This document shows positions 26,707 to 60,582 of a DNA stretch of 64,000 nucleotides, in pieces; the stretch's first letter is position 1; the number at the start of each line of letters is the position of its first letter. The notes beneath the pieces are model-generated. The model had not been told where the DNA came from, ran no database searches, and saw only the letters and a list, made by a program, of their open reading frames with translations. The stretch is from Cyanidioschyzon merolae. Its lineage: Eukaryota. Position numbers and translations under genes: made by a program. The stretch lies in the NCBI GenBank assembly GCA_000091205.1, contig AP006487.2. One strand, written 5' to 3'.

Positions 26707-27644
26707 GGTTCGCAGCAAAATAGCCGTTCAGTTCCACTCTGAACAAATACACGTTCTTGCTTTGTCAGCGCCAGCAGCGATGTGCACAGTGAAGATGTTT
26801 TAGCGTAATAGACATCTGGCTGCTTCGCAAGGCCTACCTTCCCGCACACATGATCGTCGATGCATGCGCATCGCGCGACTGTCATCGACACCAGAAGAGA
26901 GAATGACGACTAATAGACAATTCTGTACAAGATTGCTTTCCCGCTCTAGGGTGAGCGGTGGTACGTCGAAAAGTTTCCCATGTTTTCTATCGGATCCTTA
27001 TAGTGACAAGGTTTCGCGAGCAGGACAAAGCTGCCGGTCTTTCGCTCCGTGCCCCCCCGCTGGCGGGTGCTAGAGTGAGACCTCAGCTGCTTGTCCGTAA
27101 CAAAGCACATTCTGGGACTAGGAGCAGGCTGCTGCGTCTGGGCGTCGGTCTGGTTGTGGTGGACTCCCAGTGTAACGCTTCGCGCTGCCGCAGGTGGCAC
27201 GTCTGTCCGCAAAGCCTACAGACTACCAGAATAGTGACGAATCCCGATCCCGTTTGGGATCAGCCTCAGCTCGAGCCGACGCTTTCAGTTGTATGGCAAA
27301 GCCGTTCTGTCTCCGTTCTGCATCCGCCCGGCCGTATGGGCGCTATGGCGGGTGCAGTAAGGCAGGCGCTCGGCGCACGATAGAACGTTCGGAACGACCA
27401 TCTCATCCGAGAGGATGTAATGGAGCTTACAGGTAGAGAGCGGCATAATGGACGCTTTCCCGAAAGCGATTACCTATCGCGCAAGCTGATAGCCGTGGCC
27501 AAAGTAAACGTATTTTCAAAACAAATGAGTGGGACCGTCTATACGCCTCCAGCGCTTGTCCGTAGCGACAGAAGCGTGCCACCACGCTACCCAGGGCAGC
27601 GCCCGGAAAGCATGTGGTGGAAATATGGGAACACGTGACCACTG

Positions 27645-27960
27645 TCAAGTCACAGCTGAGACGGGCGCACCGGTGCAGTAGAGAACGAAGATGAAAATTG
27701 CCAACGAAGCGTAAATCCTGACGACAGTCTGCGCATTCAATGCGTCGACTATAGCTAGAAGGAGCGGAATCGGGACGTTTACGCTTCTAGCAAATCCATT
27801 GAATGATGTCAACAGAGCTCGAGGACCACTAAAGACCGGCATGATTAAAAGCGGGAACCAGACAGTGGAAAAAGAGAGCAGCCGCAGATAACGCTCACAG
27901 AGTCTGGTATTGATGACAGTGGGAACGACCCAAAACTCAGTGAACACGCCCGAGTGAGAA
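27645..27960 (-). repeat. Paralogous segment encoding a small hydrophobic peptide (…LLLAIVDALNAQTVVRIYASLAIFIFVLY…); paralog at 33300-33700
   Basis: About 250 nt are ~70% identical to 33300-33700. Minus-strand translations are conserved ('DALN.Q...ASLAIFIF') despite a frameshift in the second copy. Confidence 0.4.
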
Positions 27961-28209
27961 CACCCGTACCATTTTATTCTGATATAGAAGTAGAGCGATT
28001 GTCGTCAACTCCCGCGGCACGACGGGGCGAAATCGTCTTCCGTGTGCATCTGGGTCACGACTCGTCTCATCTTCTATGAACCTACCGTGCATCTTTTGCA
28101 TCACAAGTCGATGCATTAGCGAGGAAAATGTTTCGGCTGATACTAGCGTCGTCAATCCCGAGGCGACAGCGTAATGGGTGCCTGCCGTCCGCCGTTTCGG
28201 CCAATAGCC

Positions 28210-30228: not shown

Positions 30229-30549
30229 GCGTGCGAGTCGTCGACAGCTGCTGGCTGTCTCTTGCTGTGAATCTTACAAATTTAGTCTTTCCAGAAACAC
30301 GCTTTTGACCTCCCAATACGTAAAAACGGGACCAGGGCGAGCATGCACGGTTCGTATTCTGACAAGTCCGTAGAGCGCGCCCAACTCTAGCGAGTAACCC
30401 TGCAGTAGAGCTGTCAGAGAGAATGGCGGGCCCGCAACACCCTCCGGGGCACTCACTGCACTGCTGCGCAGTGTCGCGATCATGGTCAAGAATGGATTGC
30501 GATCCATGATGGTTAATGAATACCCGATCGTAGACGCTTTCCAGCCTTT

Positions 30550-33000: not shown

Positions 33001-33299
33001 GAAAAACAAGTTGTCGACTTGTTCTCCAGGCTAGATCCTGCTTCCAGTACTAGCTTGGTCAAGAACAACCTGGCATTCTACAAATACTTTATGGACTGGG
33101 GGAGCGTGCGCTTGTGCACGCAAAGCACGGAGTACTTGCCAACGGCACCGCCCAGACGGAGGCCATCGTCTTTGGGTATGGGGTGCGACGCAGAAACGGA
33201 GGACACCATCAAATGCAGACATCTGCATCCGGCAGGGGTATCTGTCGAGCGATAAAGCAAGTGCCGGCGGGCAACGCTCGGAGGAGGAGATATTGAGGA

Positions 33300-33700
33300 C
33301 AAACTGTAACACCTGACCACAGGTAAGTGTCACCACGACAAAGGACACACCAGGGCTGTATGTGTAGAAGATGAAAATGGCAAGCGAAGCGAATATCGTA
33401 TCTTCCGCCTGTTCATTCAGAGCGTCAGTAACAGCGAAAAGCAATGACCTTGAGAATGACACTGGTGTCAACATGCCTCGAGTTTTGACAACCAAACGGG
33501 AGCGAAAATGCAAACTGGTGTATTTGAAGCCTCAGATGATAGAGAGGAACGCGCAGCAGTCCCCGATAATGCCAGCAAAGGCTGGGCTCGATGAATGTGG
33601 TCAGATATCCAAACTTTCGCATATGCGCCCCTGTCAGGGGACGTTCCATTTTATGCTGAACTGAGTGTGAGTACCAGCGCGTGGCAGCGTACCACGCAGC
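33300..33700 (-). repeat. Second copy of the hydrophobic-peptide paralogous segment (see 27645-27960)
   Basis: Minus ORF 33031-33513 contains 'LLFAVTDALNEQAEDTIFASLAIFIFYTY'. Nucleotide similarity to copy 1 continues into 33450-33700 in a different frame. Confidence 0.4.
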
Positions 33701-42059: not shown

Positions 42060-42269
42060 TGCGGAGAAGCTTGTCTACTGGGTCTTGCTATAGCGGAACG
42101 CACTCATTCAGCGCTTTCCGTCCCTTGGTATCCGAAGCCGACCCAAGTGTCATCGTGTACGCGATGTTTCGTAAACCTCGCCGCGGTAGCCCGCGGATCA
42201 TGTACCGTTGCCTGGCCTCAGGATGGAGCGAGTTCGAAACGAAAACAGTTGCCTGCAAAAATATTAAAG

Positions 42270-42872
42270 AAAAAATGTGCCTGGTGGTGTCAGAATCCAA
42301 CAATTTTGGAACTAGAAAATAGTTTTCTGAAAAGATGTTGACAGAAAAAGTGCCTGGTGGTGTCAGAATCCAACAATTTTGAAACTAGAAAACAGTTGTC
42401 TGAAAAGATGTTGACAGAAAAAGTGCCTGGTGGTGTCAGAATCCAACAATTTTGGAACTAGAAAATAGTTTTCTGAAAAGATGTTGACAGAAAAAGTGCC
42501 TGGTGGTGTCAGAATCCAACAATTTTGAAACTAGAAAACAGTTGTCTGAAAAGATGTTGACAGCAAAAGTGCCTGGTGGTGTCAGAATCCAACAATTTTG
42601 AAACTAGAAAATAGTTTTCTGAAAAGATGTTGACAGAAAAAGTGCCTGGTGGTGTCAGAATCCAACAATTTTGAAACTAGAAAACAGTTGTCTGAAAAGA
42701 TGTTGACAGAAAAAGTGCCTGGTGGTGTCAGAATCCAACAATTTTGAAACTAGAAAACAGTTGTCTGAAAAGATGTTGACAGAAAAAGTGCCAGTAAGTG
42801 TCAGAATCCAACAATTTTGGAACTAGAAAATAGTTTTCTGAAAAGATGTTGACAGCAAAAGTGCCTGGTGGT
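42270..42872. repeat. Minisatellite: ~61-bp unit x ~10 in the SRalpha / DHRS12 intergenic region
   Basis: Unit '(g)aaaagatgttgacag(a/c)aaaagtgcctggtggtgtcagaatccaacaattttg(g/a)aactagaaaa(t/c)agtt(t/g)tct' repeats head-to-tail. Each unit holds small hairpins ('agaaaa-tag-ttttct'; near-palindrome 'ccaacaattttgg'). Confidence 0.75.
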
Positions 42873-43943: not shown

Positions 43944-45008
43944 TCAGGTCTCTGCACCAGCTACTCTCGCAGCGGATGACTCCGCTTTTGCGGAAATTTC
44001 GTCAATGCGCTGGCGAACTTTGCGGAGCAATTCCTCTGCATCTCGAACGTGATACGATGTATCCGAGAGCGGCAGGTGTTTGGGAACAATGTTGCGATCA
44101 AAATAGAGCATACCATCTTCTATGCGACTCCGCGGAACGCACGAGAGCCAGACGATGGTGTCTGCACCCTGATCCGCCGTTCGAAGACTACCTCTGAGGC
44201 GAGCATAGAATCCTGGCATAGCCTCCTGGACAAGGGGCGTTTCTGCCCATCCTGGGTGGCAGGCAACAAAAAGTACTTTGTCCGGTGATACGGTGCGGGC
44301 GTACTGTTCCACAATCGCAACCTGCTGTCGTTTGTTCTTAGCGTACTGGCGAGTGGCATCGAAACGCGCCCGATCACGCCACTCCAGATCTTTCGTCTCC
44401 AATCGTTCGGTCAACATACCGGCGCTCGTTACGAAAATAACTCTATGGTCTCCGCCGTCGCTTTGGAGCATCGACGGAAGCAAGAGGTCTGTGAGAAGCA
44501 CAGGTCCCATGACGTTCGTCGCAAAGTTCACTTCGACGCCCTCGCTGGTCGCCTTCCACGGACTGGTCATCGCGCCTGCATTGTGCACGAGCACGTTCGG
44601 CGCTGGGAAACCGCGTTCCAAATAGTCTTGAACAAACCGTCTGATGCTGTGCGCCTCACTCACGTCCACGACGTGCAGATGAACGCGTTCCGCCGCTGAC
44701 GTCGACACCGAAACCCCTGTAGCGGCACCAGTGCGCTCCGAGAGCTTCTGCACCAGCCGCATCTTGGCGGCTTCACCGCGCTCGCTGTTCCGGCAGAGCA
44801 GGTGCACTGTGGCTCCGCGTAGACCTAACGCCTCCGCAGCACAGTACCCGATACCGGAGTTCGCTCCAGTGATCAGCACGTGCTTGTCGTGCAGATCAAC
44901 CGCCACATCCTCCGCTCGGAAGTATGCTCGCTGGTGCTTTTCGAAGCCACCGCGTGTATACGACCACGAGCCGTGTACCAGGAACTGAACCGCCTTTAGT
45001 GCGTACAT
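43944..45008 (-). CDS. Short-chain dehydrogenase/reductase, DHRS12-like
   Basis: 'MYALKAVQFLVHGSWSYTRGGFEKHQRAYFRAEDVAVDLHDKHVLITGANSGIGYCAAEALGLRGATVHLLCRNSERGE' then '...YAKNKRQQVAIVEQYAR...ACHPGWAETPLVQEAMPGFYARLRGSLRTADQGADTIVWLS...YFDRNIVPKHLPLS' is colinear with DHRS12. The track ORF extends to 45419 from a GTG; ATG at 45006-45008 aligns with the DHRS12 N-terminus. Confidence 0.75.
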   Translation of the reverse strand: MYALKAVQFLVHGSWSYTRGGFEKHQRAYFRAEDVAVDLHDKHVLITGANSGIGYCAAEALGLRGATVHLLCRNSERGEAAKMRLVQKLSERTGAATGVSVSTSAAERVHLHVVDVSEAHSIRRFVQDYLERGFPAPNVLVHNAGAMTSPWKATSEGVEVNFATNVMGPVLLTDLLLPSMLQSDGGDHRVIFVTSAGMLTERLETKDLEWRDRARFDATRQYAKNKRQQVAIVEQYARTVSPDKVLFVACHPGWAETPLVQEAMPGFYARLRGSLRTADQGADTIVWLSCVPRSRIEDGMLYFDRNIVPKHLPLSDTSYHVRDAEELLRKVRQRIDEISAKAESSAARVAGAET

Positions 45009-45906
45009 GGCGTTGCGACGAAGGTTTGTGTTCAAAGCGACTCCAGCGAGGGTTGCTAGCGCTACCAGACGAGCACCCCGGGCAAGCACCATAAGCAGAG
45101 CGGGCAATACACACACTCCGTTCAGGGCTGCTGCGGAGGCGCCTGCGGTACTAGACACCGGCTGCCGCAGGGGCGCGCCCGGGCGAACAAGCCGGACACT
45201 GAACCTTGAAAAGGAGCGTGCAGCAGCGGTTAGCTGAGGACGCTCTTCTACAGACGCTTGCTGGATTGATTTGGGAACCGCTTGGTCACTTGCTTGCGCA
45301 GGAGGCGTTGTCGGTTCGTACTGTGGCAGCGTAGCGCGGTGTGGCACAGGACAACGACAACGACTTCGACGACGGAGTCGCGGCGAACACTTGCAGGACG
45401 CAGTGTGTGTCGTTGCCACGAGCGATTAGAGGCTTGCACGAGGCCAGCTGTTTTGCTGGACATAGATTGAACTAGACTGGGTCTGGTTTGTGCGTTGCCA
45501 AAGTTGCGTACACGTTGGCGACGTGCAGCGGCAGTGGTGCCGCAGACCTGGGCTGCCTGTGAGCTTTTGAGAGCACCACCACGCGCTACGCGTTTGACTC
45601 AGGGCAACGCTCTTGTCCGACATTGTCGAGCTAGACTGGAGGCTCGGAGAGAGACTAGAGGACGCCAGCGCGCGGTCGGCGCTCGACGCTGAGCTCTACT
45701 AGAGTACGATAGTGCAGAGCGCAATCGCAAGCACAGCCACCTGCTTTCTCTAGAACCGAGACATAGCAAGGAGAGGTGCAGCGAAACGAATACAAACGTC
45801 GAACACAGGGATCGGCGGACGCAACCTGGGAATTTTTCTGCGACAACTACCAGTCCAGAGCTTGAAATACTGGAGAGAAACTGCTGAGAGTTTTGAATAC
45901 ATCATC

Positions 45907-47040
45907 ATGGCTGGAAAGAAAGCTGCAGCGCCTAAAGGCAAAGCTGCCGAAGAGAAGAAGAAGAAGATCGTAGAGGACAAGACTTTCGGAATGAAAAACA
46001 AGAACAAATCGAAAAAAGTGCAACGCTACGTCGAACAGGTCCAGAAGCAAGCGGAACAAATGGTTGGCGGCTCGCGAAAGGGCTCGCATCAGACCGAGCC
46101 TGCGCAGCGGCAGTCCCGGAAGGCAGCAGAGGCAGCCCGAGCGGCAGAACTGGCTCAGTACTTTCGGCCAGTTCCCGCGGGTCCAAAGGCGCAGCGTCAG
46201 AACGACAAGGTAGATCTCTACACGGATCTCCGGGAGCAGAAAGCAGCAACCTCGAACAGTCAACCAGCTCCGTCAGGAACAGAGATGGCCAGTTGGGATA
46301 TGAAACAGCTGGAGGAGGTCATTCAACAGCGGCACGGATCACAGAATCAACGGAACGCTACGCAAATCGTCTGTCGATATTTTCTAGATGCGCTTGAGGC
46401 TGGTCGATACGGTTGGTTCTGGACGTGTCCAAATGGTGGCGACAAGTGCCCATATCGCCATGCACTGCCTCCTGGTTTCGTTCTGAAGCTGAAAAAGGCG
46501 AATGACGAGGGTGTGAATGATCAGACCGCGGCTTCTGAGGCTGCTGCCCTCGAGGACGAGATTGAGCGAGAGCGCGCACTCATCTCAACCTATACGCCGG
46601 TCACTTTGGAACGATTTCTCGAGTGGAAAGAGCGGAAGCGAAAGGAAAGAGAGGAGCGCGAGCAACGCAAACGGGATCAGGCGCTGAAACGCATGGGCAC
46701 ACAGGGCAATTCGAGTTACGTCAGGCACAAAGTGGCACTGGCGTATGGCCTTTCAGGCCGCGATCTTTTCGAATACCGGCCAGAGCTCTTCGTCGATGAT
46801 GCAAATGCGGATGAGACCAAATACGAAGAACGCAACTATGAATCTAGCTCGGATTCTCTCTCCAATGCGAGCGACGACGAGGCGCTTCAGGAGACAACCG
46901 AGCGGCAAAGAGCAGAGCATACGGATCCCGCTTCCGAGCATCCCCATGATGCGCTCGCTCAACGCATGCAACAGACGCTGACGGTGTCGGAATCGCCACC
47001 GCGGGACGTTGTGGGAGACGCTTCGCTGTTTGGCGGATAG
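45907..47040 (+). CDS. ZC3H15: Zinc finger CCCH domain protein 15 / DRG-family regulatory protein 1 (Tma46-like)
   Basis: 'MAGKKAAAPKGKAAEEKKKKIVEDKTFGMKNKNKSKKVQRYVEQV...' plus 'QIVCRYFLDALEAGRYGWFWTCPNGGDKCPYRHALPPGFVLK' (CCCH fingers) and an acidic C-terminus. Colinear with ZC3H15. Track start 45862 is TTG. Confidence 0.85.
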   Translation: MAGKKAAAPKGKAAEEKKKKIVEDKTFGMKNKNKSKKVQRYVEQVQKQAEQMVGGSRKGSHQTEPAQRQSRKAAEAARAAELAQYFRPVPAGPKAQRQNDKVDLYTDLREQKAATSNSQPAPSGTEMASWDMKQLEEVIQQRHGSQNQRNATQIVCRYFLDALEAGRYGWFWTCPNGGDKCPYRHALPPGFVLKLKKANDEGVNDQTAASEAAALEDEIERERALISTYTPVTLERFLEWKERKRKEREEREQRKRDQALKRMGTQGNSSYVRHKVALAYGLSGRDLFEYRPELFVDDANADETKYEERNYESSSDSLSNASDDEALQETTERQRAEHTDPASEHPHDALAQRMQQTLTVSESPPRDVVGDASLFGG

Positions 47041-48635
47041 AGATTCCGTGCTTCAATATGCGGAAGCAGGTATCTCATCGTATGCGCTTTAGAATGCAGG
47101 GCATCGGTGGACGTTCACCTCAGAACGATGTATGCTGGATATTTGTGCCAGGGGCCCGTTTTTGTGACTTTTTCTTGTTCTCACAGGTATTCAAGAAAAG
47201 TAATGTGTCCTGTGAATTGGGGAAAGGTCGCGTAAAGACTGTATGGCGACACTGGTGGATTGCGAACAGGTACCTGACCCCTACCGGTCAGTTGCTCCAC
47301 GATCAGCCGGTGCATGAATCACTCCTCGCGTTGTCCTTCTCATGAACGTGGTGCACCCAAAACGGAACTTGTAAGACTCCATCTTCACGACTCTGTTCTC
47401 ATCAATCCATTTCACACATAGGATCCCTACGAAATACTACCGAGAAAGCAGCAGGGTGCGAGGTTCATTTGAAGTTGATTTGAACGGTGATGAAGATACT
47501 CGGATGGACGCAGAAAAAAAGCACGCCTCGACACGGGTGCGTCGCGCGCGGAACTCGTCATCCTCGAGTCGAATGGAGTCGCGATGGATGATCAGAGGCG
47601 GGGCAGATGTTCATTTCATTCAATGGAACGTCATTGGCGACCAACGAGGGACCTGACTACGGGAACTCAAAGACGCGCAACTCGCTGTTTGTCAGTCAGA
47701 GACAAGCGAGCATGCCGACACTTTTAGCCTTAGCTGCGATGCATCCGGACGCTCGTCTATAAATCACGAAATGGGCATGATCGTTTAACAATCAATACCT
47801 CAGTCGAAGCAGTGTGTGGTTTCGCTTCCCAGATTTCTCTGTCCTGTTCTTGAGCAATGACGATTCGCAACGCTCAGAGGTGGTCGCGGAGGACCCAGCG
47901 GAGACTGGTAGCGAGCGGCTGTTCGGGCCAGCGAATGCTGTCTAGCTCAGTCCAGTCAAAGGCGTAGGCGCTGTCGTCAAAGCGCCTAGTGTTCAGCAGA
48001 GGCACGATTCGCATTCTGGGCATTGTTCAGTTCCTGGATAGCCTGGCGGTCGGAAGGCTCGGTCAGCGATTGCTCGTCCAGACGATAGTATAGACGGGGC
48101 GCTGGTTTGCTGGTAAGCGAGCTCGCCTCCGACCGTAGCATGTGACTCCTGAACGTGATGCCTTTCGGAGCTCGCCCTGCGGCAACGAAGGTCACCTGGT
48201 CGCCAAGCGCTGCTCATGGACATGCCTCTTAGGCTAGACAGCAACAAAAACCCAAGTCTGGGAATTTGCAGCGTGAGCGGACGCCACCAACGCAGTTGAG
48301 GAAGCGGGTACAGCTCTGCTACTGGGGTGCAGGGGAGAAAACATCTCGGACCCTGGTCATGGACAAGGACTCTTCCGCATGTTTCAGCAACATGGCCTTC
48401 AACGGTTGCCTACCAGTTCATCTTGGCCGGCTATGGGAGCATATCTATTTTTAGCATTCGACGGGTCCCGACACCGCACCGTCAGGCCGCAGGAAACGGC
48501 GTATTTCGGATCCACTGCTCCGAACACTGCAGAGTACGTTGCATCGTTGTCTGAAAAAATCGGAACGAGTGCACGGGCATAGCACTGGCATCCACACAAA
48601 AGTTTGGGTCTCTTCCCAGTGCTATCAACATCAGG

Positions 48636-49520
48636 TGTTGAGGGCGTTCTCGGCAACCGCACGCTTTCCCTCTCTCTCCGTCTCTCTCGCGCTCTCTCTC
48701 GCTCGCTCTGATCTCCGGCTTCAATGGCGCAGATGGCTCTATTCCATATCGAGTCGTTGTCAGCGGTCGAAGGACGTTGAGGGCAGCTCGTAACTGCCGA
48801 TCTCGCCGCACCCAGCTGTTGTCGACGCATTCAAACTGCAGGCGGACGCTGCGGACCAGGAAGCTCATTCGTAAACAGCCTCGACACGCCTTTTGCACCA
48901 TAGACGCTTGGCTACGGTCACGTGTTCCCATGCGTTCACCGCACACCCGCATCCAACTCCTCGTCTGGCTCCTGCATTGCCTCCGCCTCCTCCGCCTTCC
49001 AGCGTCATCCAGTGGTGCCTGAACGCATGCTTCATCGCTCGATACATGACGCTGACCAGTTACCGACGTCTACCACGAATGTCATGCCTCATTATCGCGC
49101 TCGATGGCATACCCGACGAATCACGAGCATCTTCGGGGTGATCCGCTCCGCTCGTTTCTTGTGAGATGCAAGCGCAAGCACGCGCTGTTGTATTCGATAG
49201 AGGATTTGCAAAGCGCGATCTTGTCAATGGTAAAACAAGTACAACAAGCGAAATCCAGGCTGGAAAAGGCGTCGAAAAACTTCCAATCAATCTATGCTCC
49301 ATTCGTGCAAAGCGGTACCGCGCTCCCCAATGAAGTTGATCCCTGCATCGCCTCCGGTCCGGGTATAAGACCATTTTCCATGCTAACAGAGGAGATGGGA
49401 GCCTCTGGCACCATATCCGCTCAAAAGCGTGCTGCTGCTGCTGCTGCTGCTGTAGAATGTTGTCTCGTCCATGCTCATAGAGAAAGACGATTTTCTGTAT
49501 CGAAAGGAATCGATTATTTG
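48636..49520 (+). repeat. Mosaic dispersed repeat family, copy 1 (modules A + A')
   Basis: 48636-49275 is ~99% identical to 54693-55330 (module A, with a CT-rich tract). 49276-49520 (A') is related to 58540-58800. An ORF (49104-49538) spans A/A' and is partly conserved at the amino-acid level in copy 3 ('PFSMLTEEMGASGT…AVEC' vs 'PFSMLNEAMGAAGT…AVEW'). Confidence 0.7.
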
Positions 49521-50704
49521 ACGCGCAAACTATACTGATTTTTCTGCATGAGCTCGTGAAAAAAGCCGTCAATGGATGAGGTCGAGCCCTTTTTCTCCGA
49601 AATCATAATACACAAAATGCTGCGCACACACGAGTTGCAACAGAAACATCCAATGTTAAGCAATATGTAGTTCGAGCATGCTACACGTAAGAAAAGGAGA
49701 AACGCGGATACTCGTACGTATCCATTGCATGATGATATCCACTACTGAACGAACCCTCGTTCTAGAGCGTCGCCAGCCATCCTGACTCAGATGACGTTAC
49801 AAAAAATCCTGCAGCAAAGCGTCCGCGGCGCGACTCCGAACAGGCTCCTGAGAATCCTAAAACTGCACATGAACACGTAAGCCCTTTTTCCTGCAGTTCG
49901 AATGTCGGCGTTGTACATCTTATAATGGTTCGAAAAATCGAAAGGCAGGCAGAAGCCAGCAGTTCTGTGCTCTATTTTTATTTGGCGCGGATGTCGAGCG
50001 CATGGCAACCAGCGACGCATGACGTCTGCCGCGGGATCGAGGACCCTATCCGAAGAACCCCAGTTGCGCAGATCTAGTGGGCAGTTAGGAGCAAACGACC
50101 GCCGTTCCCTTCTAGATTCCTCCATTCTTTCAAAGCTGTCCAGACGAGCCTAGCCGATGCCAAGAGAGGCTTGAGCGATCCACAACAACCATGCGGATAC
50201 CGCGGACGCCTTGCGAGGCCGTGACGGTGCCGCTACGCCTCAGCGGACTTCGACTAGAGACGAGGTTCGTTCAACAGGGAGATTCGGAGCTCGTCGTCGG
50301 CTTCGGACGCCAACTGGCATTACTGACAGCTTCGCTGCATGCAGCAGCGCGGACGGCCACACGAGAGGAACGCAGTGACCACAGCAAAACGGAGGCGCTG
50401 AGCACAGTCCGCCCCCGTTCACAGTCGCAGGAACATGTGTACAACGCTGTGGAGCGGCGCGAGCGACGCAGCGGCACGCACCACTGCGCAAGTACGCTGA
50501 CCACTGTACAGACTGATGGGTACACTTCACAAAAACTCTCTGCATCGAATGTAGCGTCGTCCAAGTCTCGAAAATACTACCAAATACCGCCTCTATCCGA
50601 TGGAAAACCAGGAGTGGTGTTGTTGGTACCCAGAGGACGCTGGAGCGGAGCATGCCACGCTTCCTCGGGTAGCGGGAGCCCCGTGTCACGCCCCTAGCAT
50701 ATGC

Positions 50705-50870
50705 AATATCCATGCATGAATGCTTGGATGCACGGATGCATGAATGCTTGGATGCACGGATGCTTGGATGCTTGGATGCACGGATGCTTGCATGCACGGA
50801 TGCACGGATGCTTGGATGCACGGATGCTTGGATGCACGGATGCTTGCATGCACGGATGCATCACCGATCA
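50705..50870. repeat. 8-bp microsatellite (WYGGATGC)n, ~20 units, ~310 bp upstream of the dynamin start
   Basis: 'ttggatgcacggatgcttggatgcttggatgcacggatgcttgcatgcacggatgc...' The period of 8 is not a multiple of 3, so the ORFs reading MHECLDARM... across it are artefacts. Confidence 0.75.
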
Positions 50871-51180
50871 TCAAAAAAAACCACCACAGCACCAGAAGCT
50901 AAGGCATCGATGAAATCGGACACGCTGGCACTGGACCTGCGCGCCATCGGAGCGCGCTGCTGTCCGTGGGCGCCACCGGCGCCATGCGCGCGTGCACGGA
51001 TCGCAGTGTGCCTTCGAAAGCGTTCGATGCAGGGCAGCGATCGCGCTGGTGTCCGCTTTAATGCTGTGTCCAGAATGTCCGAAACGGACGGTACGCCACC
51101 GTTCCCGGTGCTGCACGAAACGTTGACAACGAGGCTTGGCGCTCTGGGTACGCGTTGCTCGGGCGAACGCGACAGGCTTC

Positions 51181-53487
51181 ATGGAGCGCCTAATACCTAT
51201 CGTAAACAAACTTCAAGACCTCTTCGCCGAGACTGGGTTAGACAGCCCAATCGACCTGCCACAGATTATGGTGGTGGGCGCCCAGTCCTCGGGAAAGTCG
51301 AGCGTATTGGAGAACGTTGTAGGAGAGTCCATTTTTCCGCGTGGTACGGGTATTGTAACGCGCCGCCCCATCGTTGTTCAGCTTTACTGCACAGCGAGGG
51401 AGCGGTTGAATCAGTCGGGAGCCCCGGATAACATGTTTAACGAGGACGGAAGCTATGTGCTGTCGGATGGAGCGCCAACGGACCCCCGGTCGATTCCGCC
51501 GGGCGCGGAGAACCAGGCATATGCAGAGTTTCTGCACAAGCCCGGTGTGCGCTTCTACAACTTTGACGACGTGCGCGCAGAAATAGAACGAGAGACAGAT
51601 CGCGTTACTGGAAAAAACAAGGGAATAAGCCCGAAAGCGATCAACCTGCGGGTGTACTCACCGCACGTGGTGAACCTCACCGTCGTCGACCTGCCCGGAC
51701 TCACCAAGGTCCCGGTCGGAGACCAGCCGTCGGATATCGAGCGTCTCATTCGCGCTATGGTTTTGTCGTACATAGAGCGTCCCAACGCGATTATATTGGC
51801 TGTGCACCCGGCTACAATGGATCTCGCTACGAGCGATGCGTTGCAGATAGCGCGCCAGGCGGACCCAGAGGGGCGACGCACGCTGGGTGTCATCACCAAG
51901 CTCGACCTGATGGACAAAGGAACGGATGCCATGGAGATGCTGACCGGGAAGGTTATCCCTCTGAAACTGGGTTACATTGGGGTAATCTGTCGTGGGCCCG
52001 CAGACCTGCGAGCTGGTAAATCTATTCAACAGGCGCGAGAGGATGAAATCCGTTTCTTCCGCTCCCATCCGGTGTACAGACGTCTGCTGCCACAGCTGGG
52101 AACGAATACGTTAGCACGAACACTGTCAACGCTTCTTATGAAGCACATTCGTGACACGCTGCCGAGCATACGCCAGAAAATGTCGCAGCAGCTAGCAGAG
52201 TGGCGCAAGGAATTGCAGACGCTGGGACCTGCGTTTGAGGGCGCTGACGATCTCGGTGGCGCCCTCCTCAATGTTATCAATAGATACTCGTCGGAGTTTG
52301 CAAAATCGCTGGAGGGCAACTCACAGCAGACGGTGAATACCCAGGAGCTTTATGGCGGTGCGCGCATCAATTACATCTTCAACGACATTTACGCGAAGGA
52401 GCTGCAGTCGATGAATGCGTTCGAAGGCCTCACTCGCGAGGATATCCGCACAGCAATCCGCAACGCGACAGGTCATCGCAGCCCGCTTTTCGTACCAGAG
52501 CTCGCTTTTGAGCTGCTCGTCAAGAAACAAATTACCCACTTTGTCCCGCCGGCCTACTCCTGCGTTGACTTGGTCTACGACGAACTCGTGCGTCTCGCGC
52601 TGAACTGTGAAACAGAGTTGCTGCAACGCTATGAGAATCTGCGCTCCGAAATCTTGGCTTGCGCGCAAAACCTGTTACGCGAGTTGAAACAACCGTGTCT
52701 GGAGATGGTTCAAAACCTCATCGCCATGGAGACATCCTACATTTCCGTGAATCACAAGGATTTCATCGGCGGCAACAAAGCAATGAGTCAGCTTGTGCGC
52801 GCTCGCATGGAAGAGGAAGAGCGCCGAACTAGATCCGCGAAAGCTGCGAACAGTACGGACAACGCCGCGAATAGTGCACCGAAAGAGAGCAACGCAAACG
52901 ACAATCGCATTCTTCAACCTCGCCGGCGAAACCAGGACGAAAATGCGAAGAAGAACGACGATGCCCGTCGCAAGGATGACAAGTCGCCGAACAAGACCGA
53001 TGCGTCGAACGCCGAGAAGGACGCGCGCTCTGACCGGAACCCGCGCGGTGACCCAACGATGGACAACTTTTTCAATGAGGCGGACGAGGACGAGGAAGAC
53101 GGCAACGAACGCCGGAACCGAGGCTTACACACGCTCCCGTCGGTGCCGGAACACCTCAAAGCAGGCGAAGTATCGAGCGACCGCGATCGGGATGATATCG
53201 AGCTCATCCAGACGCTTCTTGCGAGTTACTTCGATGTTGTGCGGGTCAATATGATGGATATGGTACCAAAGGCAATCATGAGCTTCCTGGTGCTCCGCGC
53301 CCGCGACCGGATGCAGTCGCGTCTGGTCGCTGATCTCTACAAACCCGAACGTATGAGCGAACTGCTCAACGAGTCAAGCGACGTAGCGGAGCGACGTGCA
53401 ACCGCAAAACGAATGGTGGACCTTCTCCAGCGCGGTATGGCGGTGATTAACGAGGTTCGAGACGTTCACGTCAAAGAGGAGATTTAG
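51181..53487 (+). CDS. Dynamin-related protein (Drp1/Dnm1-like large GTPase)
   Basis: 'MERLIPIVNKLQDLFAETGLDSPIDLPQIMVVGAQSSGKSSVLENVVGESIFPRGTGIVTRRPIVVQL' is a dynamin G domain, followed by a middle domain, a Lys/Asp-rich variable insert and a GED ('...DIELIQTLLASYFDVVRVNMMDMVPKAIMSFLV'). Track start 51136 is TTG; ATG at 51181. Stop is TAG at 53485-53487. Confidence 0.9.
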   Translation: MERLIPIVNKLQDLFAETGLDSPIDLPQIMVVGAQSSGKSSVLENVVGESIFPRGTGIVTRRPIVVQLYCTARERLNQSGAPDNMFNEDGSYVLSDGAPTDPRSIPPGAENQAYAEFLHKPGVRFYNFDDVRAEIERETDRVTGKNKGISPKAINLRVYSPHVVNLTVVDLPGLTKVPVGDQPSDIERLIRAMVLSYIERPNAIILAVHPATMDLATSDALQIARQADPEGRRTLGVITKLDLMDKGTDAMEMLTGKVIPLKLGYIGVICRGPADLRAGKSIQQAREDEIRFFRSHPVYRRLLPQLGTNTLARTLSTLLMKHIRDTLPSIRQKMSQQLAEWRKELQTLGPAFEGADDLGGALLNVINRYSSEFAKSLEGNSQQTVNTQELYGGARINYIFNDIYAKELQSMNAFEGLTREDIRTAIRNATGHRSPLFVPELAFELLVKKQITHFVPPAYSCVDLVYDELVRLALNCETELLQRYENLRSEILACAQNLLRELKQPCLEMVQNLIAMETSYISVNHKDFIGGNKAMSQLVRARMEEEERRTRSAKAANSTDNAANSAPKESNANDNRILQPRRRNQDENAKKNDDARRKDDKSPNKTDASNAEKDARSDRNPRGDPTMDNFFNEADEDEEDGNERRNRGLHTLPSVPEHLKAGEVSSDRDRDDIELIQTLLASYFDVVRVNMMDMVPKAIMSFLVLRARDRMQSRLVADLYKPERMSELLNESSDVAERRATAKRMVDLLQRGMAVINEVRDVHVKEEI

Positions 53488-54692
53488 TGCGCGTTCGTCA
53501 CATATTCGAACGATTGTAAACCAGTTTTGCCTCAGGCATCCGGGAGCAGGATCTCAGCACAGCGTTCTGGACGATGCTGGTCGCGTTTTGCGAAAAGCGT
53601 ATCCGCTGCAGCGAACGACTGCGAACGGCTCATGGATGCGTACGGTCATGCACGGGGGGCGCCCACAACGACACCCGCTCAGTGGTTTCGGGAAGGTGTT
53701 CTTGTTTTTTTCGTCTCCGAGTTTTGCGTTCGCACCGGGGCTGTCGACGCCACTGGGAGCATCCACGGCAGACTCGGCGCACGATGGAACATGAGAAACG
53801 CCCAGTATCTCCGAAGGGACCAGGGTTGATGGAATTCGGCAGTATGCCATGGAATGATGGACGCTTTCTCGGTCGCTTATAGCAAGCGTGCTACCCTCTT
53901 TCGTATATAGATTCGGTGGATCGAAAAGGCAGCTGCTCCTTGCACGCGTTCTACGATGACCGCGACGCTGGCAGGGCAGGTAACGCTCCCCGTATGCGTT
54001 CTAGCGGGTTGGCGTCGAGTGCACAGCGGCCCAGCGCTCGCCATCGTTATCCGAACGATATAGACGGGGTTCCAGACCGTACCCAGCGCTGAAGCAGATA
54101 CATGTGCGCCCCAGATATCGCCGCATCTCTGCAGCAACACCGACAAGCACCGCGTTGGCATGAGCGCTGGCCACCATCGGTAGTTGAGCACGCCCGGCAA
54201 TGCCGTGCACGCTGCTCCGGGCCGGAGCAAACCACGTGTTGTGTTTCGGACGCAAGACTCCTGGTCGATTGCTGCAAGTACGCTGATTCGATGCGTGTTT
54301 GCATGAGTTCAGTCGAGCGATATGGACAGGGGCGAGCTGCTGTGCCTTGTGCTGAATGCGGAGCATGCCCATCGCCTGGAACGGTGAATGTCGTTGCCGG
54401 TATGGATACCAGCGAGCTACCGTAACTGAGGATACCGGGAGCTCAGATCCATATAAGCCAAATCAGGTACATAGTGGTGTTGGTGGATGATATCAGCGGT
54501 AGCAGCGTCTTCTTAGAAAACAGGTATCTGCTGAAACAACAAGCGTTCTCTTGAACACGGCCGCACCGCCTGACGAGCGCTTGTCTCATTGCCTCAATAC
54601 ACGTGTTCGCGTAAAATGCAGCATGATGACTGACAATGGCGTATATGCTCAAAATTCGGCAGCTTTTCGAACGATTATGAGTACCATCATTG

Positions 54693-55830
54693 GTGGGCGT
54701 TATCGGCAACCGCACGCTTTCCCTCTCTCTCCGTCTCTCTCGCGCGCTCTCTCTCTCGCTCGCTCTGATCTCCGGCTTCAATGGCGCAGATGGCTCTATT
54801 CCATATCGAGTCGTTGTCAGCGGTCGAAGGACGTTGAGGGCAGCTCGTAACTGCCGATTTCGCCGCACCCAGCTGTTGTCGACGCATTCAAACTGCAGGC
54901 GGACGCTGCGGACCAGGAAGCTCATTCGTAAACAGCCTCGACACGCCTTTTGCACCGTAGACGCTTGGCTACGGTCACGTGTTCCCATGCGTTCACCGCA
55001 CACCCGCATCCAACTCCTCGTCTGGCTCCTGCGTTGCCTCCGCCTCCTCCGCCTTCCAGCGTCATCCAGTGGTGCCTGAACGCATGCTTCATCGCTCGAT
55101 ACATGACGCTGACCAGTTACCGACGTCTACCACGAATGTCATGCTTCATTATCGCGCTCGATGGCATACCCGACGAATCACGAGCATCTTCGGGGTGATC
55201 CGCTCCGCTCGTTTCTTGTGAGATGCAAGCGCAAGCACGCGCTGTTGTATTCGATAGAGGATTTGCAAAGCGCGATCTTGTCAATGGTAAAACAAGTACA
55301 ACAAGCGAAATCCAGGCTGGAAAAGGCGTAGAAAAACGTTGACTGCAATCGATGATTCGCATTGCCGAGTTCAGCGCTATCTCAGCATTGCTATGTGATC
55401 AAGTCATCCAGGGAAGATCTCGGGTGTTTGCTCTCGTCCATCCAGCGGCGCGAATCGCTGTGCCCACAAATCCCCTTGAACCTGATTGGTAGAAAACCTG
55501 ATGCATGCAAAGTCTGCGCATACTCTATCTGTTTGACACGGAAAAGCATGCAGATTGCTACCCAGGACCTGGACCATGAAACCGGTTGGTTTACGAATCC
55601 TCGTTCGAGGGCGTCGCCATGCATCGGTCTTGCGGTGCCGCAACGATTTCCAGTGGCACAGCGCCCAGAGCGCCACGCCCAGGAGACAAGCGAGAATCCC
55701 AAGAATTCGGACGAATCTGTAAGACCCCATTGCTACACTTCGGTTATCGAAGCTGTACACCTGAACAGCATTCCGATAAAAATCTCAAGCCAGGACTAGA
55801 GCCAGCAGTCCAGTGTCCCATGTTCATCGG
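54693..55830 (+). repeat. Mosaic dispersed repeat family, copy 2 (modules A + B)
   Basis: 54693-55330 matches copy 1 module A with ~6 differences. 55335-55830 is ~97% identical to 58803-59300 (module B). A' is absent. A c>a change creates a TAG in the frame that is open in copy 1. Confidence 0.7.
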
Positions 55831-56085
55831 ACATAGGTATCGAAACAGACAATGTTCACTTCAAGGGTATCCTGATGTCTGCCCCTGCAATGCCTGAAAA
55901 ATCTCACTTGACGACACATCGACACGTCATGCACCATTCGAATGGTGGCGAATGACCAAAACGCGGCTGCAGAGCATCGCGCTCCATCCGGTCGCATCGC
56001 CGATACGCGCTGCGAATCCAGTACCGAAGCGTCCGAAACATGCCGAGGTAGACTCGTCATCGCTTGCGTCGACAACAAGGAACGC

Positions 56086-56952
56086 TCAGATCCGAAGGTC
56101 TCGGAGTCGGTCTAATCGTTGCATGAGATCGAGCTCCTCGGCCATGGCGCTCTGTGGCCCCGGATACGATCGCTCTTGCAGGCGATCCGCGAAAACATCC
56201 GTCCGAGCCGCAATCTCTGCACCATTCTCGCTATCAAAGAGATCCATGGAAGGTTCCCATTGTAACTCATAGTGCTCGGCTATGCGCTTCATTTCCCGTA
56301 CAATAACCTCTCTGGGGGGAATCCTCCATTCCAATAACCCAATCAGATTCAAATTTACACCGCTCGCATGCGGACGCTCAAAAATGAACAACGCGAAATC
56401 GGGGCCCCCAAACAGCCTCACGAATATGTGACCGACTTCATCGAGCTCCGTCACTGTGCCGGTTAGCGGCCCAGTGGCGGCGTCAGGAGGGGCAATGCGC
56501 GTTCCCGCGAACGAGTAACAGGCATAGATGATACTGTTGACGGCTTCTCGAATCTCGAGCGGAATTGGCACGACACTTTTCCGGGGATCTCGCTCATAAA
56601 TCCGAAAACATTGCTCAATCAAGTTGAAGCGGGCCTGCAAAAGCTCCGTGAAGAGCAAGAGCAAGTGCAGCGCCTCCTCGAGCTCCAGCTGGTGGTAGAG
56701 GTGCTCCACACGAACGCGCGCCAGTTCGGCACGCCCTGCTTGCCGCGCACCGGCCGATGCGAACGCAGCACCGTTGAGCTCGCTCTCGGGTGCCAGGAGT
56801 GCAGCAACTTCCCTTTCGGCAGTGATTATGCTTTGACGCAACCGGTTTTTGCGCAGAGCTAGGCGCGCGCGTGCCCCTTGCAAGAGTAAACGCGCCCGTG
56901 CAGGTGAAAACTGGCGAGACCGGTTCTCAAAAAGCCGCGTTATTCGCTTCAT
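56086..56952 (-). CDS. IST1: IST1 homolog (ESCRT-III-like regulator of Vps4)
   Basis: 'RAELARVRVEHLYHQLELEEALHLLLLFTELLQARFNLIEQ...EAVNSIIYACYSF' is colinear with the IST1 N-domain ('ARIRVEHIIREDYLVEAMEILELYCDLLLARFGLIQ'). The C-terminal 'EELDLMQRLDRLRDLRI' is MIM-like. ATG at 56950-56952. The track ORF extends to 57417 through antisense CAG repeats (CCRCCR…), which I take as non-coding. Confidence 0.7.
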   Translation of the reverse strand: MKRITRLFENRSRQFSPARARLLLQGARARLALRKNRLRQSIITAEREVAALLAPESELNGAAFASAGARQAGRAELARVRVEHLYHQLELEEALHLLLLFTELLQARFNLIEQCFRIYERDPRKSVVPIPLEIREAVNSIIYACYSFAGTRIAPPDAATGPLTGTVTELDEVGHIFVRLFGGPDFALFIFERPHASGVNLNLIGLLEWRIPPREVIVREMKRIAEHYELQWEPSMDLFDSENGAEIAARTDVFADRLQERSYPGPQSAMAEELDLMQRLDRLRDLRI

Positions 56953-57599
56953 GTCGTACAAGTCCGGGCACAGCGCGCGTTCGGTCGAGGGCGTCGTCAA
57001 GGCCGGCTTTCGCGGAAAGTAACCTGCGAGGTGTCCCGCCCGTCCCAGACGTTTAACGCACAAGGCGTCTGGAACGCTCAACGGAATACCAGTAAAGTCG
57101 AGTGCGACTCGGCGGAGACCCACGAGACTCGGTTCCAACCCTGGTAGCCGCGGAAGCGTAGTGCAGCGTGCGTTCCGGCGCGCGAAGGCCAGGTTATCGG
57201 CGCACCGTGTCCACTGAGTGTACAGGACAGCACCGCACCGTTTCATGAACGATCGATCGATTGATCGGCAGCAGCGGCAGCAGCAGCAGCGGCAGCAGCG
57301 GCAGCAGCGGCACGTCCCTGGAAGTCGTCGATTGCTGCGGCGGATTGCGCGGGCGCGATGCATTCGCGGTGGCGTTTTTCTCCAGTTGATGGTGTTCCAG
57401 CTGCAGATGCGTGCCACTGCATGTGCTTTTTTGCGATCTATAGCAGACGCGGTCGAATTGGATTCACTTGAAGGATTTAAAACATCTAGGAGAATGGTAT
57501 GGGCGTAAAAGTGGAGGATTTTGGAGCGTCGCCATCGCTCGGTTCTGCAAAGAAACGGGAACGATCCTCCTCTGACTGACGATCGTGCGACGAAGACGA

Positions 57600-57930
57600 A
57601 GAAGAACAGGGCAGAGTAGGCGAGAAAGTGTGTTTGCCTAACGAGATCATCACGGAACTGTAGTGGCAGAGAGGACGCAAGATCGAGGAATCATCGCAGT
57701 GGTGCGTTCAGCTTGCTGCGGAGCACATAGAGAACTCGTGAAGCGAGACTTCAACGCCGCCGTCGATACCAGAAAAGGTGCGGTACCGCAGACGAGAGAC
57801 GCGAGCGATGTGACGCGGGCGAAGGTTGCGGGCCAGCCTCACAGCATCGGCGTGTACGGGGTTAAGCTGAAGCCGATAGCAGGCGGCTGGTCAAAACAAG
57901 CAGGGAGGCGTCTGAGCGTAGGAATGTAAA
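57600..57930 (+). mobile_element. Fanzor/TnpB-like relic 3 (C-terminal fragment only)
   Basis: ORF 57663-57929 has 'SACCGAHRELVKRDFNAAVDTRK' (Zn-finger remnant plus RuvC-III motif). The 3'-terminal nucleotides 'ggctggtcaaaacaagcagggaggcgtctgagcgt' are homologous to copy 1 'ggccggtccaaaaacacggggtggcgtctgcacgt'. Confidence 0.4.
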
Positions 57931-58059
57931 TATCATTCACGGTCGAGGGACATTTTTTGTTTTCCTGACCCTCTCCAGGATACAATGAAGCATGTTGCCT
58001 GACCAGGGCGTAAACGCTCAAGTTCGGGCTCTTTTTTAACGATCTTGAATACTTGCGTT

Positions 58060-59300
58060 CGCGGGCCTGTCTGTAACCGCTTCCTTTGCCTGTCTCTCGG
58101 ATTTCCGGCTTTCAATATGCGAGTCCTTTGTTTTCCTGTGGATCCGTTGTAATCAAAAGAAGGACGTTTATGGCAGTTTGAAGGCCCCGATTCTGAAGTT
58201 CCAGGCTGTTCTCGACACCGCTAATGCACAACTGGAGGTTGCGATCAACGCTTTCGTTGTGTTCTTGCGATCTTCTTTGGATAGAACTGCGGTGTGCTCG
58301 TCGCAGCGGTGAGAGTTGCCTGTCATCAGATGTTCGCATGCGCCCAACAAATTCCCTCGTCCGAGCGATTCCCCTCTGTCGTGGAAACGCTTGCTTCAGC
58401 GCTCGATGCATTGCCTCAACGGATACGGAAAGCGCGACTCGATGCTTTGCTGCGGTGAAGCCTCTGGGCGATGCCCGCGGCGAGTACCCTCGTTGCGGCA
58501 CGGCGCACGCGCACGCTGTTCCATAAGGCAGAGAATTTCGTGGAATGCACAATGTCGTCCATGATGAACCAAGTATCCGACGGGAAGTGAAGGCCTGGGT
58601 AGACTTGGAAAAATTTCGGTTCCTGTACGCTACCTCCATGCGAAGCAGTCGATATGATGAATCAGGTCAGAGTCCGATGCCCTTTTCCATGCTAAATGAA
58701 GCGATGGGAGCCGCTGGTACCGCATCAAAAGAGAGCTATGATGGTGATGGTGATGCTGTAGAATGGCGTCTTGTCGATGAACACATATAGGGGGAAAAAG
58801 GCTGGCCTTTCGGACGCAATCGATGATTCGCATTGCCGAGTTCAGCGCTATCTCAGCATTGCTATGTGATCAAGTCATCCAGGGAAGATCTCGGGTGTAT
58901 GCTCTCGTCCATCCAGCGGCGCGAATCGCTGTACCCACAAATCCTCTTCAACCTGATTGGTAGAAAACCTGATGCATGCAAAGTCTGCGCATACCCTGTC
59001 TGTTTGACACGGAAAAGCATGCAGATTGCTACCCAGGACCTGGACCATGAAACCGGTTGGTTTACGAAACCTCGTTCGAGGGCGTCGCCATGCATCGGTC
59101 TTGCGGTGCCGCAACGATTTCCAGTGGCACAGCGCCCAGAGCGCCACGCCCAGGAGACAAGCGAGAATCCCAAGAATTCGGACGAATCCGTAAGACCCCA
59201 TTGCTACACTTCGGTTATCGAAGCTGTACACCTGAACAGCATTCCGATAAAAATGTCAAGCCAGGACTAGAGCCAGCAGTCCAGTGTCCCGTGTTCATTC
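58060..59300 (+). repeat. Mosaic dispersed repeat family, copy 3 (diverged A + A' + near-identical B)
   Basis: 58060-58800 is ~75% similar to module A/A' of copy 1. 58803-59300 is ~97% identical to 55335-55830. It starts ~130 bp downstream of Fanzor relic 3. Confidence 0.6.
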
Positions 59301-60582
59301 TGACCCAGCGGTAGTACCTGATGCGTCGATTATTCGCGTCATGCGGTCGAGAATTCTCGAGCGACCACTCAGCCATGCAGCTGCGAGCGCGCTGACATAG
59401 CGTAGGCGCTCAGAAGCGGCGTCCTTGAATAACCTATCGGATGGTGCGCCCGCTGAACACCGTGCTCTATCAACGCGGTGCTGGGAGCGTTCAGACTACC
59501 CCAGGAACATCCAGTGTCGATATCGGAGCTCAATGCGGAGCTCGAATACGCGACTGGCGCTGGCCGTGTACTAGGAATATAACCCACTCACAATGAGCAT
59601 AAACGTATCATCTCAACCTACAAGAGAAAGAGACTATCTGTCAAGCAGCTTTTCGAAACTCCCCTCGAGTTTCTCAGACACGACGAGCAGCACGGCGGCA
59701 CGATGCAGCAGCATTAGATAGCAGACGTGCAGCTGGAGCACGGCGTCGTACCGAACCCGGCGCCGCACTGCGCACTTTCCAGCACCTCCGAGCCAACACC
59801 GTATGCTGACCCAAGGATACGAGAACGCTGCTCCATCTCCTTGCAGCGTCCGGAGCGGCGCTACATACGTCATGCTGGGCGATCGTCGCAGGCAAGCGGT
59901 ACGCCATAGGATCGTACGAACCAAGCATGATCTCTTCCAAAAGAAAGTATCGTTCGATCTGATCAATAGTGCTAGCTGGTAGAGCTTGGATGGATGGTGC
60001 GGTATCATACGCACGACTCTAGATACCGATATGCATCGCGTTATCGATCATTCTCTGTGGGCAAAGGCAACGATCCGTCGATGAAAAGATATCATCGGTC
60101 GCATCCTCGAGCCGACGCCCGCTGTGTGTGGCACGACAACGCCGCTCTGTCTCTGTGAAGCGACCGCATCGGCGCTATAGGTGCCATTGCTGTCGCTTTC
60201 GGGAGGCACTAGGCACACACGATAGGACGCACGAAACGACCAGTATATTCGAGAAGAAGTATAGGTCATGTAACTTGGAAGTAGGGCGTCTGATAGATAC
60301 CTCACCGCGCACTGAAAAAAAAAGAAAGAAGAGCAAAATGCGCATAATCGGAGAACGCTGGCCGAACTTCAAGTTCTGTGAATGAAGAAATAAAAATCGA
60401 ACGCTGTCGAGGCGCCAGAGCGGCAATCCCCACAGGCGCGACGCAGACTCGCGTCTGCACGAGTACGACGGCCCAACAGCGCTAGTCTGCCGCTGTGTGC
60501 GTGATTGGGCACTACGAGCCCTGGCACCACATGTCACAGGCCCTGATAGAGAGACGGTACAGTCGTCTCACTAGAGCGATAG

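Follow-up and report, generated by a model that had tools for sequence, protein, structure and literature searches.

Probable ectopic gene conversion between neighbouring transposon relics in a mosaic repeat beside the Dnm1 dynamin gene of Cyanidioschyzon merolae

We analysed a stretch of 64,000 nucleotides of Cyanidioschyzon merolae (contig AP006487.2; hereafter the window, numbered from its first letter along one strand), in which near-identical direct repeats bracket a dynamin gene. The window starts with two copies of CCCCCCATT (1-20), which is complementary to the telomere repeat of C. merolae, AATGGGGGG (PMC1955436), and is therefore as a whole the telomere-proximal, subtelomeric end of a chromosome. 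The dynamin gene is an intact plus-strand open reading frame (ORF) of 768 codons (51181-53487), 100% identical to the chain of a deposited C. merolae dynamin structure and carrying the Pfam domains Dynamin_N, Dynamin_M and GED; we take it to be Dnm1, the mitochondrial-division dynamin. It is followed by an IST1-like gene on the minus strand (56086-57417; Pfam Ist1, E 2.5e-18), which is syntenic with IST1 of a related cyanidiophyte. In a contig of this relative (L004) Dnm1 is 73% identical, the order SSF, ATP_bind_1, MetRS, SRP-alpha, Dnm1, IST1 is conserved and the spacers are tiny, with only 37 bp between Dnm1 and IST1. In C. merolae, three relics of one repeat family interrupt this region: R1 upstream of Dnm1, R2 between Dnm1 and IST1, and R3 downstream of IST1. 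R2 is a mosaic, near-identical over its left part to R1 and over its right part to R3, and we consider recent ectopic gene conversion to be its probable origin.

The left part of the mosaic forms the first of two repeat pairs. A1, inside R1 (48642-49280, plus strand), and A2, inside R2 (54695-55337, plus strand), are direct copies with 98.4% identity over 643 columns (self-BLAST, E = 0). Aligned base by base, they differ by six substitutions (A1/A2: 48649 C/A, 48802 C/T, 48900 A/G, 48976 A/G, 49088 C/T and 49273 C/A) and by one 4-bp indel, CGCT at 54745-54748, which falls within a CT-rich microsatellite. An earlier note on this DNA had described two direct repeats of about 99% identity, with some six differences over about 640 bp, around a segment of about 5.4 kb with an intact dynamin gene. 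This description holds, with coordinates that were 2-7 bp off: the gap between the copies is 5414 bp (49281-54694) and contains the whole 768-codon Dnm1 frame. Outside the A tract, identity reaches background within a few bases (42% and 25% over 40 bp on the two sides). Self-comparison of the region recovered both A copies and also a second pair that the note had not mentioned. B1 (55341-55827, plus strand), the R3-like part of R2, starts 3 bp past the end of A2 and is 97.7% identical to B2 inside R3 (58813-59298, plus strand), with 10 substitutions and one gap. The divergence of A (0.94%) and that of B (2.05%) are not significantly different (Fisher p = 0.13), and both are comparable in magnitude to what separates strains (0.4-1.8%).

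One of the A substitutions (C>A at 49273/55330) changes TCG to TAG in the frame of a plus-strand ORF at 49104-49538 that is open in A1, as had been pointed out. This ORF has no Pfam match and no homologues, is absent among the annotated proteins of the protein collection, and runs opposite a decayed transposase frame. It is therefore spurious, and the TAG within it has no functional meaning.

The A/B repeat structure is real and present in natural populations. Independent metagenome contigs cross the repeats and exclude an assembly artefact, a possibility that the earlier note had raised. One contig of 6105 nt (L010) aligns without gaps to 51042-57146 at 99.39% identity and spans Dnm1, A2, B1 and IST1, and a single 48-kb contig (L016, L017) holds both A copies, each in its own flanks. 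Another (L018) extends A1 to A2, so that A2 is seen in L010, L017 and L018, and two more (L011, L012) cross R3 into its right flank, supporting the reference junction there. A further contig (L001) has its end exactly 127 nt inside A2, which is what a k-mer assembly graph would produce where a repeat makes it branch.

The tracts belong to a family whose unit is about 1.3-1.45 kb long. An nhmmer profile built from R1, R2 and R3 finds six copies in the window, these three in direct orientation and three diverged copies in inverted orientation. With the help of family alignments, and for R1 and R2 also of end alignments, R1 was delimited as a full-length decayed relic of 1433 bp (48553-49985), R2 as the mosaic relic (54607-55831) and R3 as a full-length relic of 1328 bp (57976-59303), all with the transposase sense on the minus strand. 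The inverted copies, on the plus strand, are the full-length Rc (32308-33663, 1356 bp; E 3.8e-72), Rb (23756-24770; E 8.8e-72) and Rb2 (27584-27984; E 5.7e-22 and 9e-92), the last being a complementary end piece of the family that covers model positions 4-417. R1, R2 and R3 are tied to Rb by nhmmer at E 1e-53 to 1e-72. The family profile finds no copy in the contig of the related cyanidiophyte. Since this repeat-free relative has the same gene order, the R copies are lineage-specific insertions into conserved synteny rather than parts of a unit that moved Dnm1.

No open frame runs across the family copies, and an intact transposase is present in none of the six. When the uncorrected six-frame translations were compared with Pfam nothing was significant, the one sub-threshold match being to DDE_3, over 25 residues of Rb within a 117-nt segment that the other copies have lost. 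We corrected the Rb translation by hand across two frameshifts before further profile searches. The corrected reading, 'FVAIDENLF...RGYAPKS...FIAAIASSG...IIMDNTVQHKS...PWFNPTENVF', holds the D, D and E motifs in the usual IS630/Tc1/mariner order (D1 FVAIDENLF, 24264-24290; D2 IIMDNTVQH, 24494-24520; E PWFNPTENVF, 24591-24620). It matches PF13358 DDE_3 at E 9.6e-10 (38.9 bits, cut-off 28.6), with 2-130 of the 146 profile positions covered, and NF033545, a model of IS630 transposases, at E 1.1e-14 (54.7 bits; the peptide being a fragment, it does not reach the cut-off of 100 set for the whole protein). D1 and D2 have left recognisable remnants in R1 and R3 (minus strand) and in Rc (plus strand); motif inspection places the first catalytic-D motif of R1, SMSMDETTFY, at 49452-49481, and the D1 and D2 remnants of R3, YVFIDKTPFY and FIMDDIVHS, at 58758-58787 and 58542-58568. 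A protein search with the corrected peptide matched only the same loci in other strains and did not reveal the nearest transposase relatives. At the DNA level, a degenerate terminal inverted repeat, (T)CAGAATAAAATGGGACAC, emerges when the left ends of the copies are aligned with the reverse complements of their right ends. In Rc its arms, CAGACCAGATTAAAATGG / CCATTTTATGCTGAACTG (18 nt, 78% complementary, 1320 nt apart), are the top-ranked inverted pair and are located exactly at the ends of the family-defined unit. TA adjoins AAATGG at most copy ends; the flanks are decayed, and this TA is either a duplication or part of the inverted repeat. Given the DDE_3/IS630 match of Rb and the degenerate terminal inverted repeats, the family consists of dead, decayed relics of IS630/Tc1/mariner (ITm) DNA transposons.

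Within this family R2 stands out by its composition. R1 and R3 are collinear and only about 55% identical overall (713/1290), with patches of 74-88%, such as the 74% patch between 49371-49473 and 58680-58779. R2 consists, from left to right, of its own left end (54607-54694, about 88 bp), A2, a 7-nt junction, B1 and a few copy-specific last bases. Three-way alignment shows that it is without a middle segment of about 220 bp that contains the first catalytic-aspartate (D1) region; in R1 this segment (X1) occupies 49281-49497 on the plus strand and its R3 homologue lies at about 58589-58812. In terms of the transposase, A corresponds to the D2/C-terminal part, the missing segment to D1, and B to the N-terminal part together with one terminal repeat. 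The copy-specific left end of R2 (54611-54684, plus strand) is about 75% identical to R3 at 57980-58052 and is not alignable to R1; its local alignment with R3 scores 35, against 9.7 +/- 1.3 for shuffles (maximum 16), or 19 standard deviations above them. Since this end is homologous to the family yet not R1-like, the A tract starts inside the element. At the other side, R2, R3 and a further copy, R4, do not agree in the last bases of their right ends. BLAST of the tract flanks detected no homology past the tracts, and the short copy-specific ends were found only by local alignment and the family profile. R2 combines two properties that characterise gene conversion, namely near-identical patches in otherwise diverged homology (A 98.4% and B 97.7%, against about 55% between R1 and R3) and boundaries that lie inside the unit, with copy-specific unit sequence flanking them at both R2 ends.

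R4, the fourth B-type copy, lies outside the window, on three metagenome contigs (L006, L008, L009), where it adjoins TFIIS-Zn-ribbon and VHS/GAT genes. Its segment at 703-1245 of L008 is equivalent to window 58748-59290 and 97.6% identical to it, and the near-identity of R3 and R4 hence extends 65 bp to the left of B's edge. Further contexts are few: a metagenome-wide scan with an A 22-mer found A-type contexts at R1 and R2 only, and searches with the B ORF in public metagenomes and protein clusters found B-type contexts at R2, R3 and R4 only. One additional scan match (L015) was rejected as a chance occurrence of the 22-mer in a bacterial gene. Neither A nor B belongs to a young multi-copy burst. 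Variants that in the reference set A1 apart from A2, and B1 apart from B2, occur shuffled over the copies in other strains, with A1 of L016 being 99.5% identical to reference A2 and R3 of L011 being closer to reference B1; this is suggestive of, and fits, ongoing exchange between copies.

A transposed or segmentally duplicated copy would be expected to be identical through its termini. The R copies are not, which argues for conversion rather than for a new copy, and we think it likely that the near-identity of A and B arose by recent ectopic gene conversion, that is templated repair, among neighbouring old relics. Of the interpretations listed in the earlier note, gene conversion is supported by the mosaic and by a tract that begins inside a diverged copy. 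Recent transposition is unsupported, because there are copy-specific termini outside the identical tract, decay is heavy throughout the family and the metagenome-wide scan turned up no A-type copies but these two. The related suggestion that the repeats are substrates for deletion or duplication stands as a potential, with regard to deletion of Dnm1; neither a deletion nor a duplication of this kind was observed. For the C. merolae nucleus, both homologous recombination and gene conversion have been documented (PMC3764038), and our literature searches found no description of a mosaic at the Dnm1 locus.

The sequence of events that we propose is as follows. R1, R2 and R3 would have entered three intergenic spacers, all in the same orientation: R1 the one upstream of Dnm1, R2 the one between Dnm1 and IST1, and R3 the one downstream of IST1. 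They would then have decayed to about 55% mutual identity. Much later, after a break or gap inside the dead R2, non-reciprocal repair guided by homology or microhomology may have overwritten part of it, with R1, 6 kb upstream, as the template for its left 643 bp and an R3-type copy, 3.5 kb downstream, as that for its right 487 bp. It is conceivable that two separate events took place, each halting at the internal deletion of R2, where homology ends; alternatively, a single gap repair could have used two templates and joined the ends in the middle, thereby creating the deletion of about 220 bp. A microhomology-primed template switch may be needed, for which the GGGCGTT common to the left boundary would be a candidate. 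Were A1 and A2 to cross over, Dnm1 would be lost, a change that is presumably lethal or strongly deleterious; this would explain why the products are non-crossover only. For B, R2 is the recipient: since the identity of R3 and R4 continues for 65 bp beyond the left edge of B, the contiguous arrangement of middle segment and B (X2+B) is the donor state. We infer that R2 was the recipient for A as well, and that the repair followed one of the routes just outlined.

Several points weigh against this explanation. Native R2 was probably too far from R1 for classical homologous recombination, which would be inefficient if the two shared no more than the roughly 55% identity of R1 and R3, so that a template switch must be invoked. 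Both tracts end within 7 nt of the same deletion, which calls either for repair from two templates or for termination at a discontinuity in homology, and the direction of transfer for A is not proven. The shuffled variants could reflect mixing of reads by the assembler inside a repeat of 490-640 bp. As to the nature of the family itself, a target-site duplication is not established for the R copies, and transposase homology rises above a curated threshold in one copy only, after manual frameshift correction.

The rival that fares best places the chimera formation before insertion, with R2 being a young, internally deleted, non-autonomous element that arose by abortive gap repair from R1-type and R3-type copies and was then transposed between Dnm1 and IST1. 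Cut-and-paste transposons such as P, Ac/Ds and mariner are known to yield internally deleted and chimeric derivatives, and the R family is of this type; moreover, the D1 region is absent from R2, a near-identical B-type copy (R4) sits at another locus, and the same spacer is without R2 in the related species. Against these points, the identical tracts stop short of the termini: over its left 88 bp R2 is only 75% identical to R3 and has diverged from R1, and on the right it differs in the outermost bases. In addition, there is no copy with an intact transposase among the six, and no more than two A and three B contexts were found in public metagenomes and protein clusters. We therefore regard a young chimeric R2 as unlikely, and ectopic conversion of an old R2 as the better account.

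Much less probable is that A and B are a functional sequence, be it a regulatory module, a small protein or a non-coding RNA, that was duplicated around Dnm1 and IST1 and whose near-identity is maintained by strong purifying selection. The tracts are overlapped by several ORFs of 80-190 codons, and one of 145 codons is intact in both B copies. However, no frame is open across the family, none of these ORFs is annotated in the protein collection, the tracts have no Pfam, Rfam or tRNA match, and the B ORF matches only its own near-identical copies. Nor can selection explain the sharp steps from about 99% identity to background, or why R1 and R3, copies of the same element, are only about 55% identical. 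The protein-coding reading of the plus-strand ORFs in A, X and B was rejected, the 10 substitutions between B1 and B2 ignoring the 145-codon frame, and an RNA gene was rejected in the absence of any Rfam or tRNA match in the window. An unequal crossover between R1 and R3 was likewise rejected as the origin of R2: it predicts a 5'R3-3'R1 chimera with duplicated Dnm1 and IST1, and R2 has the opposite polarity and the genes are single-copy.

Two direct repeats of about 640 bp and 99% identity around 5.4 kb are superficially reminiscent of a long terminal repeat (LTR) element or of a composite transposon carrying Dnm1 as cargo. The interior is, on the contrary, a host gene in synteny (SRP-alpha, Dnm1, IST1) with a repeat-free relative and holds no gag/pol; the tracts start with GGGCGTT, where LTRs would have TG..CA ends, and do not end at the unit ends, and A2 runs into B1, which is paired with a third site. 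No LTR elements were detected in the genome of C. merolae (PMC1955436), and we give this reading practically no credence. The same is true of an assembly error that falsely duplicated a reference segment, for which we found no direct support even though repeats of such size are a classic source of error, and against which stand the gapless L010, the 48-kb contig with both A copies and the two contigs across R3.

Two metagenome contigs show other arrangements of the relics. L007 (3025-13537) joins IST1 and R3 directly to the R4 locus, and is either a real R3/R4 recombinant haplotype or a chimeric assembly through the repeat. In L013, positions 1-692 correspond to an R3-type middle segment plus B (window 58608-59298), followed by the R2 right flank and IST1 (55341-57190); it represents either an R2 allele in which the middle segment was retained or restored, or a switch made in assembly within B.

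A different kind of association between the family and a gene is seen at Rb and Rb2. As complementary halves they make up one unit (model positions 453-1429 for Rb, 4-417 for Rb2), in the same orientation and 2.8 kb apart, and between them lies an arsenite-methyltransferase-like gene on the minus strand (ORF 25588-26706; NF008823, E 8.5e-46), itself flanked by direct repeats of about 110 bp (~24880-24990 and ~27260-27370). The arrangement of Rb, methyltransferase and Rb2 is the same in natural strains; in the related species PRA1 and SSF are 37 bp apart, with neither the relic nor the methyltransferase gene. The gene could be nested in, or carried by, an IS630-type element, and if so it would be relevant to bacterial gene acquisition in Cyanidiophyceae. 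That a methyltransferase gene splits one IS630-family copy raises the possibility that the family serves as a vehicle for bacterial genes. A far-reaching interpretation would combine this with the strain data, taking the relics to be an actively recombining R1/R2/R3/R4 network in natural populations, with structural variants arising by crossover, for which L007 and L013 would be candidates, and the IS630 family to be a possible vehicle for bacterial gene acquisition. We consider it improbable; were it true, segments with Dnm1 or IST1 could also be lost, excised as circles or amplified.

Other features of the window lie outside the R family. Between SRP-alpha and Dnm1, C. merolae exceeds the related species by about 9 kb of sequence, which contains a short-chain dehydrogenase gene and a Tma46/DFRP-type gene (43944-47040), a 73-bp array and R1. 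The 73-bp tandem repeat (42241-42872; 8.6 copies, 93% matches) coincides with a dip into AT-rich sequence (GC 0.42) and has the SRP-receptor-alpha and short-chain-dehydrogenase genes on its two sides. About 300 bp upstream of the Dnm1 start is an imperfect 8-bp tandem array, GGATGCAC / GGATGCTT, of about 17 units (50687-50884), at whose edge three independent metagenome contigs all start (50884-50889). A separate weak repeat links 57475-57907 with 30537-30972 in inverted orientation (tblastx 40-55% over about 130 codons), its two copies lying upstream of IST1 and of the SSF transporter gene. On the minus strand at 14624-19104 there are two large overlapping ORFs (957 and 639 codons) without a Pfam or NCBIfam match.

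C. merolae has the reputation of the simplest free-living eukaryotic genome, one that is almost free of transposons. The six IS630/Tc1-type relics described here make up about 7 kb, or 11% of the window, which suggests that decayed elements have been under-counted; the published account lists eight class II elements (PMC1955436). The mosaic of R2 implies that ectopic transfer acts between short, old repeats in this genome, in keeping with the proficiency in homologous recombination for which it is known. The repeats matter in practice as well, since Dnm1 is a flagship gene for work on organelle division. A1 lies within 2 kb upstream of its coding sequence and A2 1.2 kb downstream, and repeats of 640 bp and 490 bp so close to the gene could misdirect homology arms or PCR in gene targeting. 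Beyond this, the feature at the Dnm1 locus is an ordinary, neat case of ectopic homogenisation between transposon relics and changes no general principle.

Comparison with known elements and processes places the locus more precisely. The 253-copy interspersed element of C. merolae is about 3.2 kb long and has a truncated ORF weakly similar to WSSV WSV486 (PMC1955436), whereas the R unit is only 1.3-1.4 kb with an IS630-like ORF remnant, which argues against their identity. The eight reported 'class II' transposase-related elements are closest to bacterial transposases (PMC1955436), which agrees with the fact that Rb matches the IS630 model, a bacterial one, more strongly. Those eight were counted in 16.5 Mb, whereas six relics occur here in 64 kb, and most R-family relics are probably not included in the published class II tally. 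With IS630/Tc1/mariner elements the R family shares a unit of about 1.3-1.45 kb, a single transposase frame, short terminal inverted repeats, intergenic insertions, and the motifs 'FVAIDE..F..RGYAPKS', 'IIMDN..H' and 'P.FNP.EN.F' in canonical order and context. It differs in that all six copies are dead through stops, frameshifts and deletions, that the E motif is kept in only one, and that R1-R3 are recognisable only through DNA homology to the better-preserved Rb.

For the origin of R2 itself, abortive or template-switching gap repair, as known from P element, Ac/Ds and mariner, offers one parallel: R2 is internally deleted in the catalytic domain and has an interior derived from two copies. 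The termini of R2, unlike those of such products, are older than its interior, and the initiating lesion was therefore probably a random break in a dead relic rather than an excision gap made by a transposase. The other parallel is ectopic gene conversion as seen in yeast Ty elements, subtelomeric families and human segmental duplications. R2 departs from these cases in being a mosaic from two donors, with its tracts meeting at an internal deletion, and in a background of about 55% identity that is far below what usually supports homologous recombination and suggests a microhomology-primed or gap-repair variant of the process. What it has in common with them are sharp-edged, near-identical patches within older, diverged paralogues and unchanged flanks; the transfer was probably non-reciprocal as in those cases, and paralogue-distinguishing variants may likewise be shared across copies.

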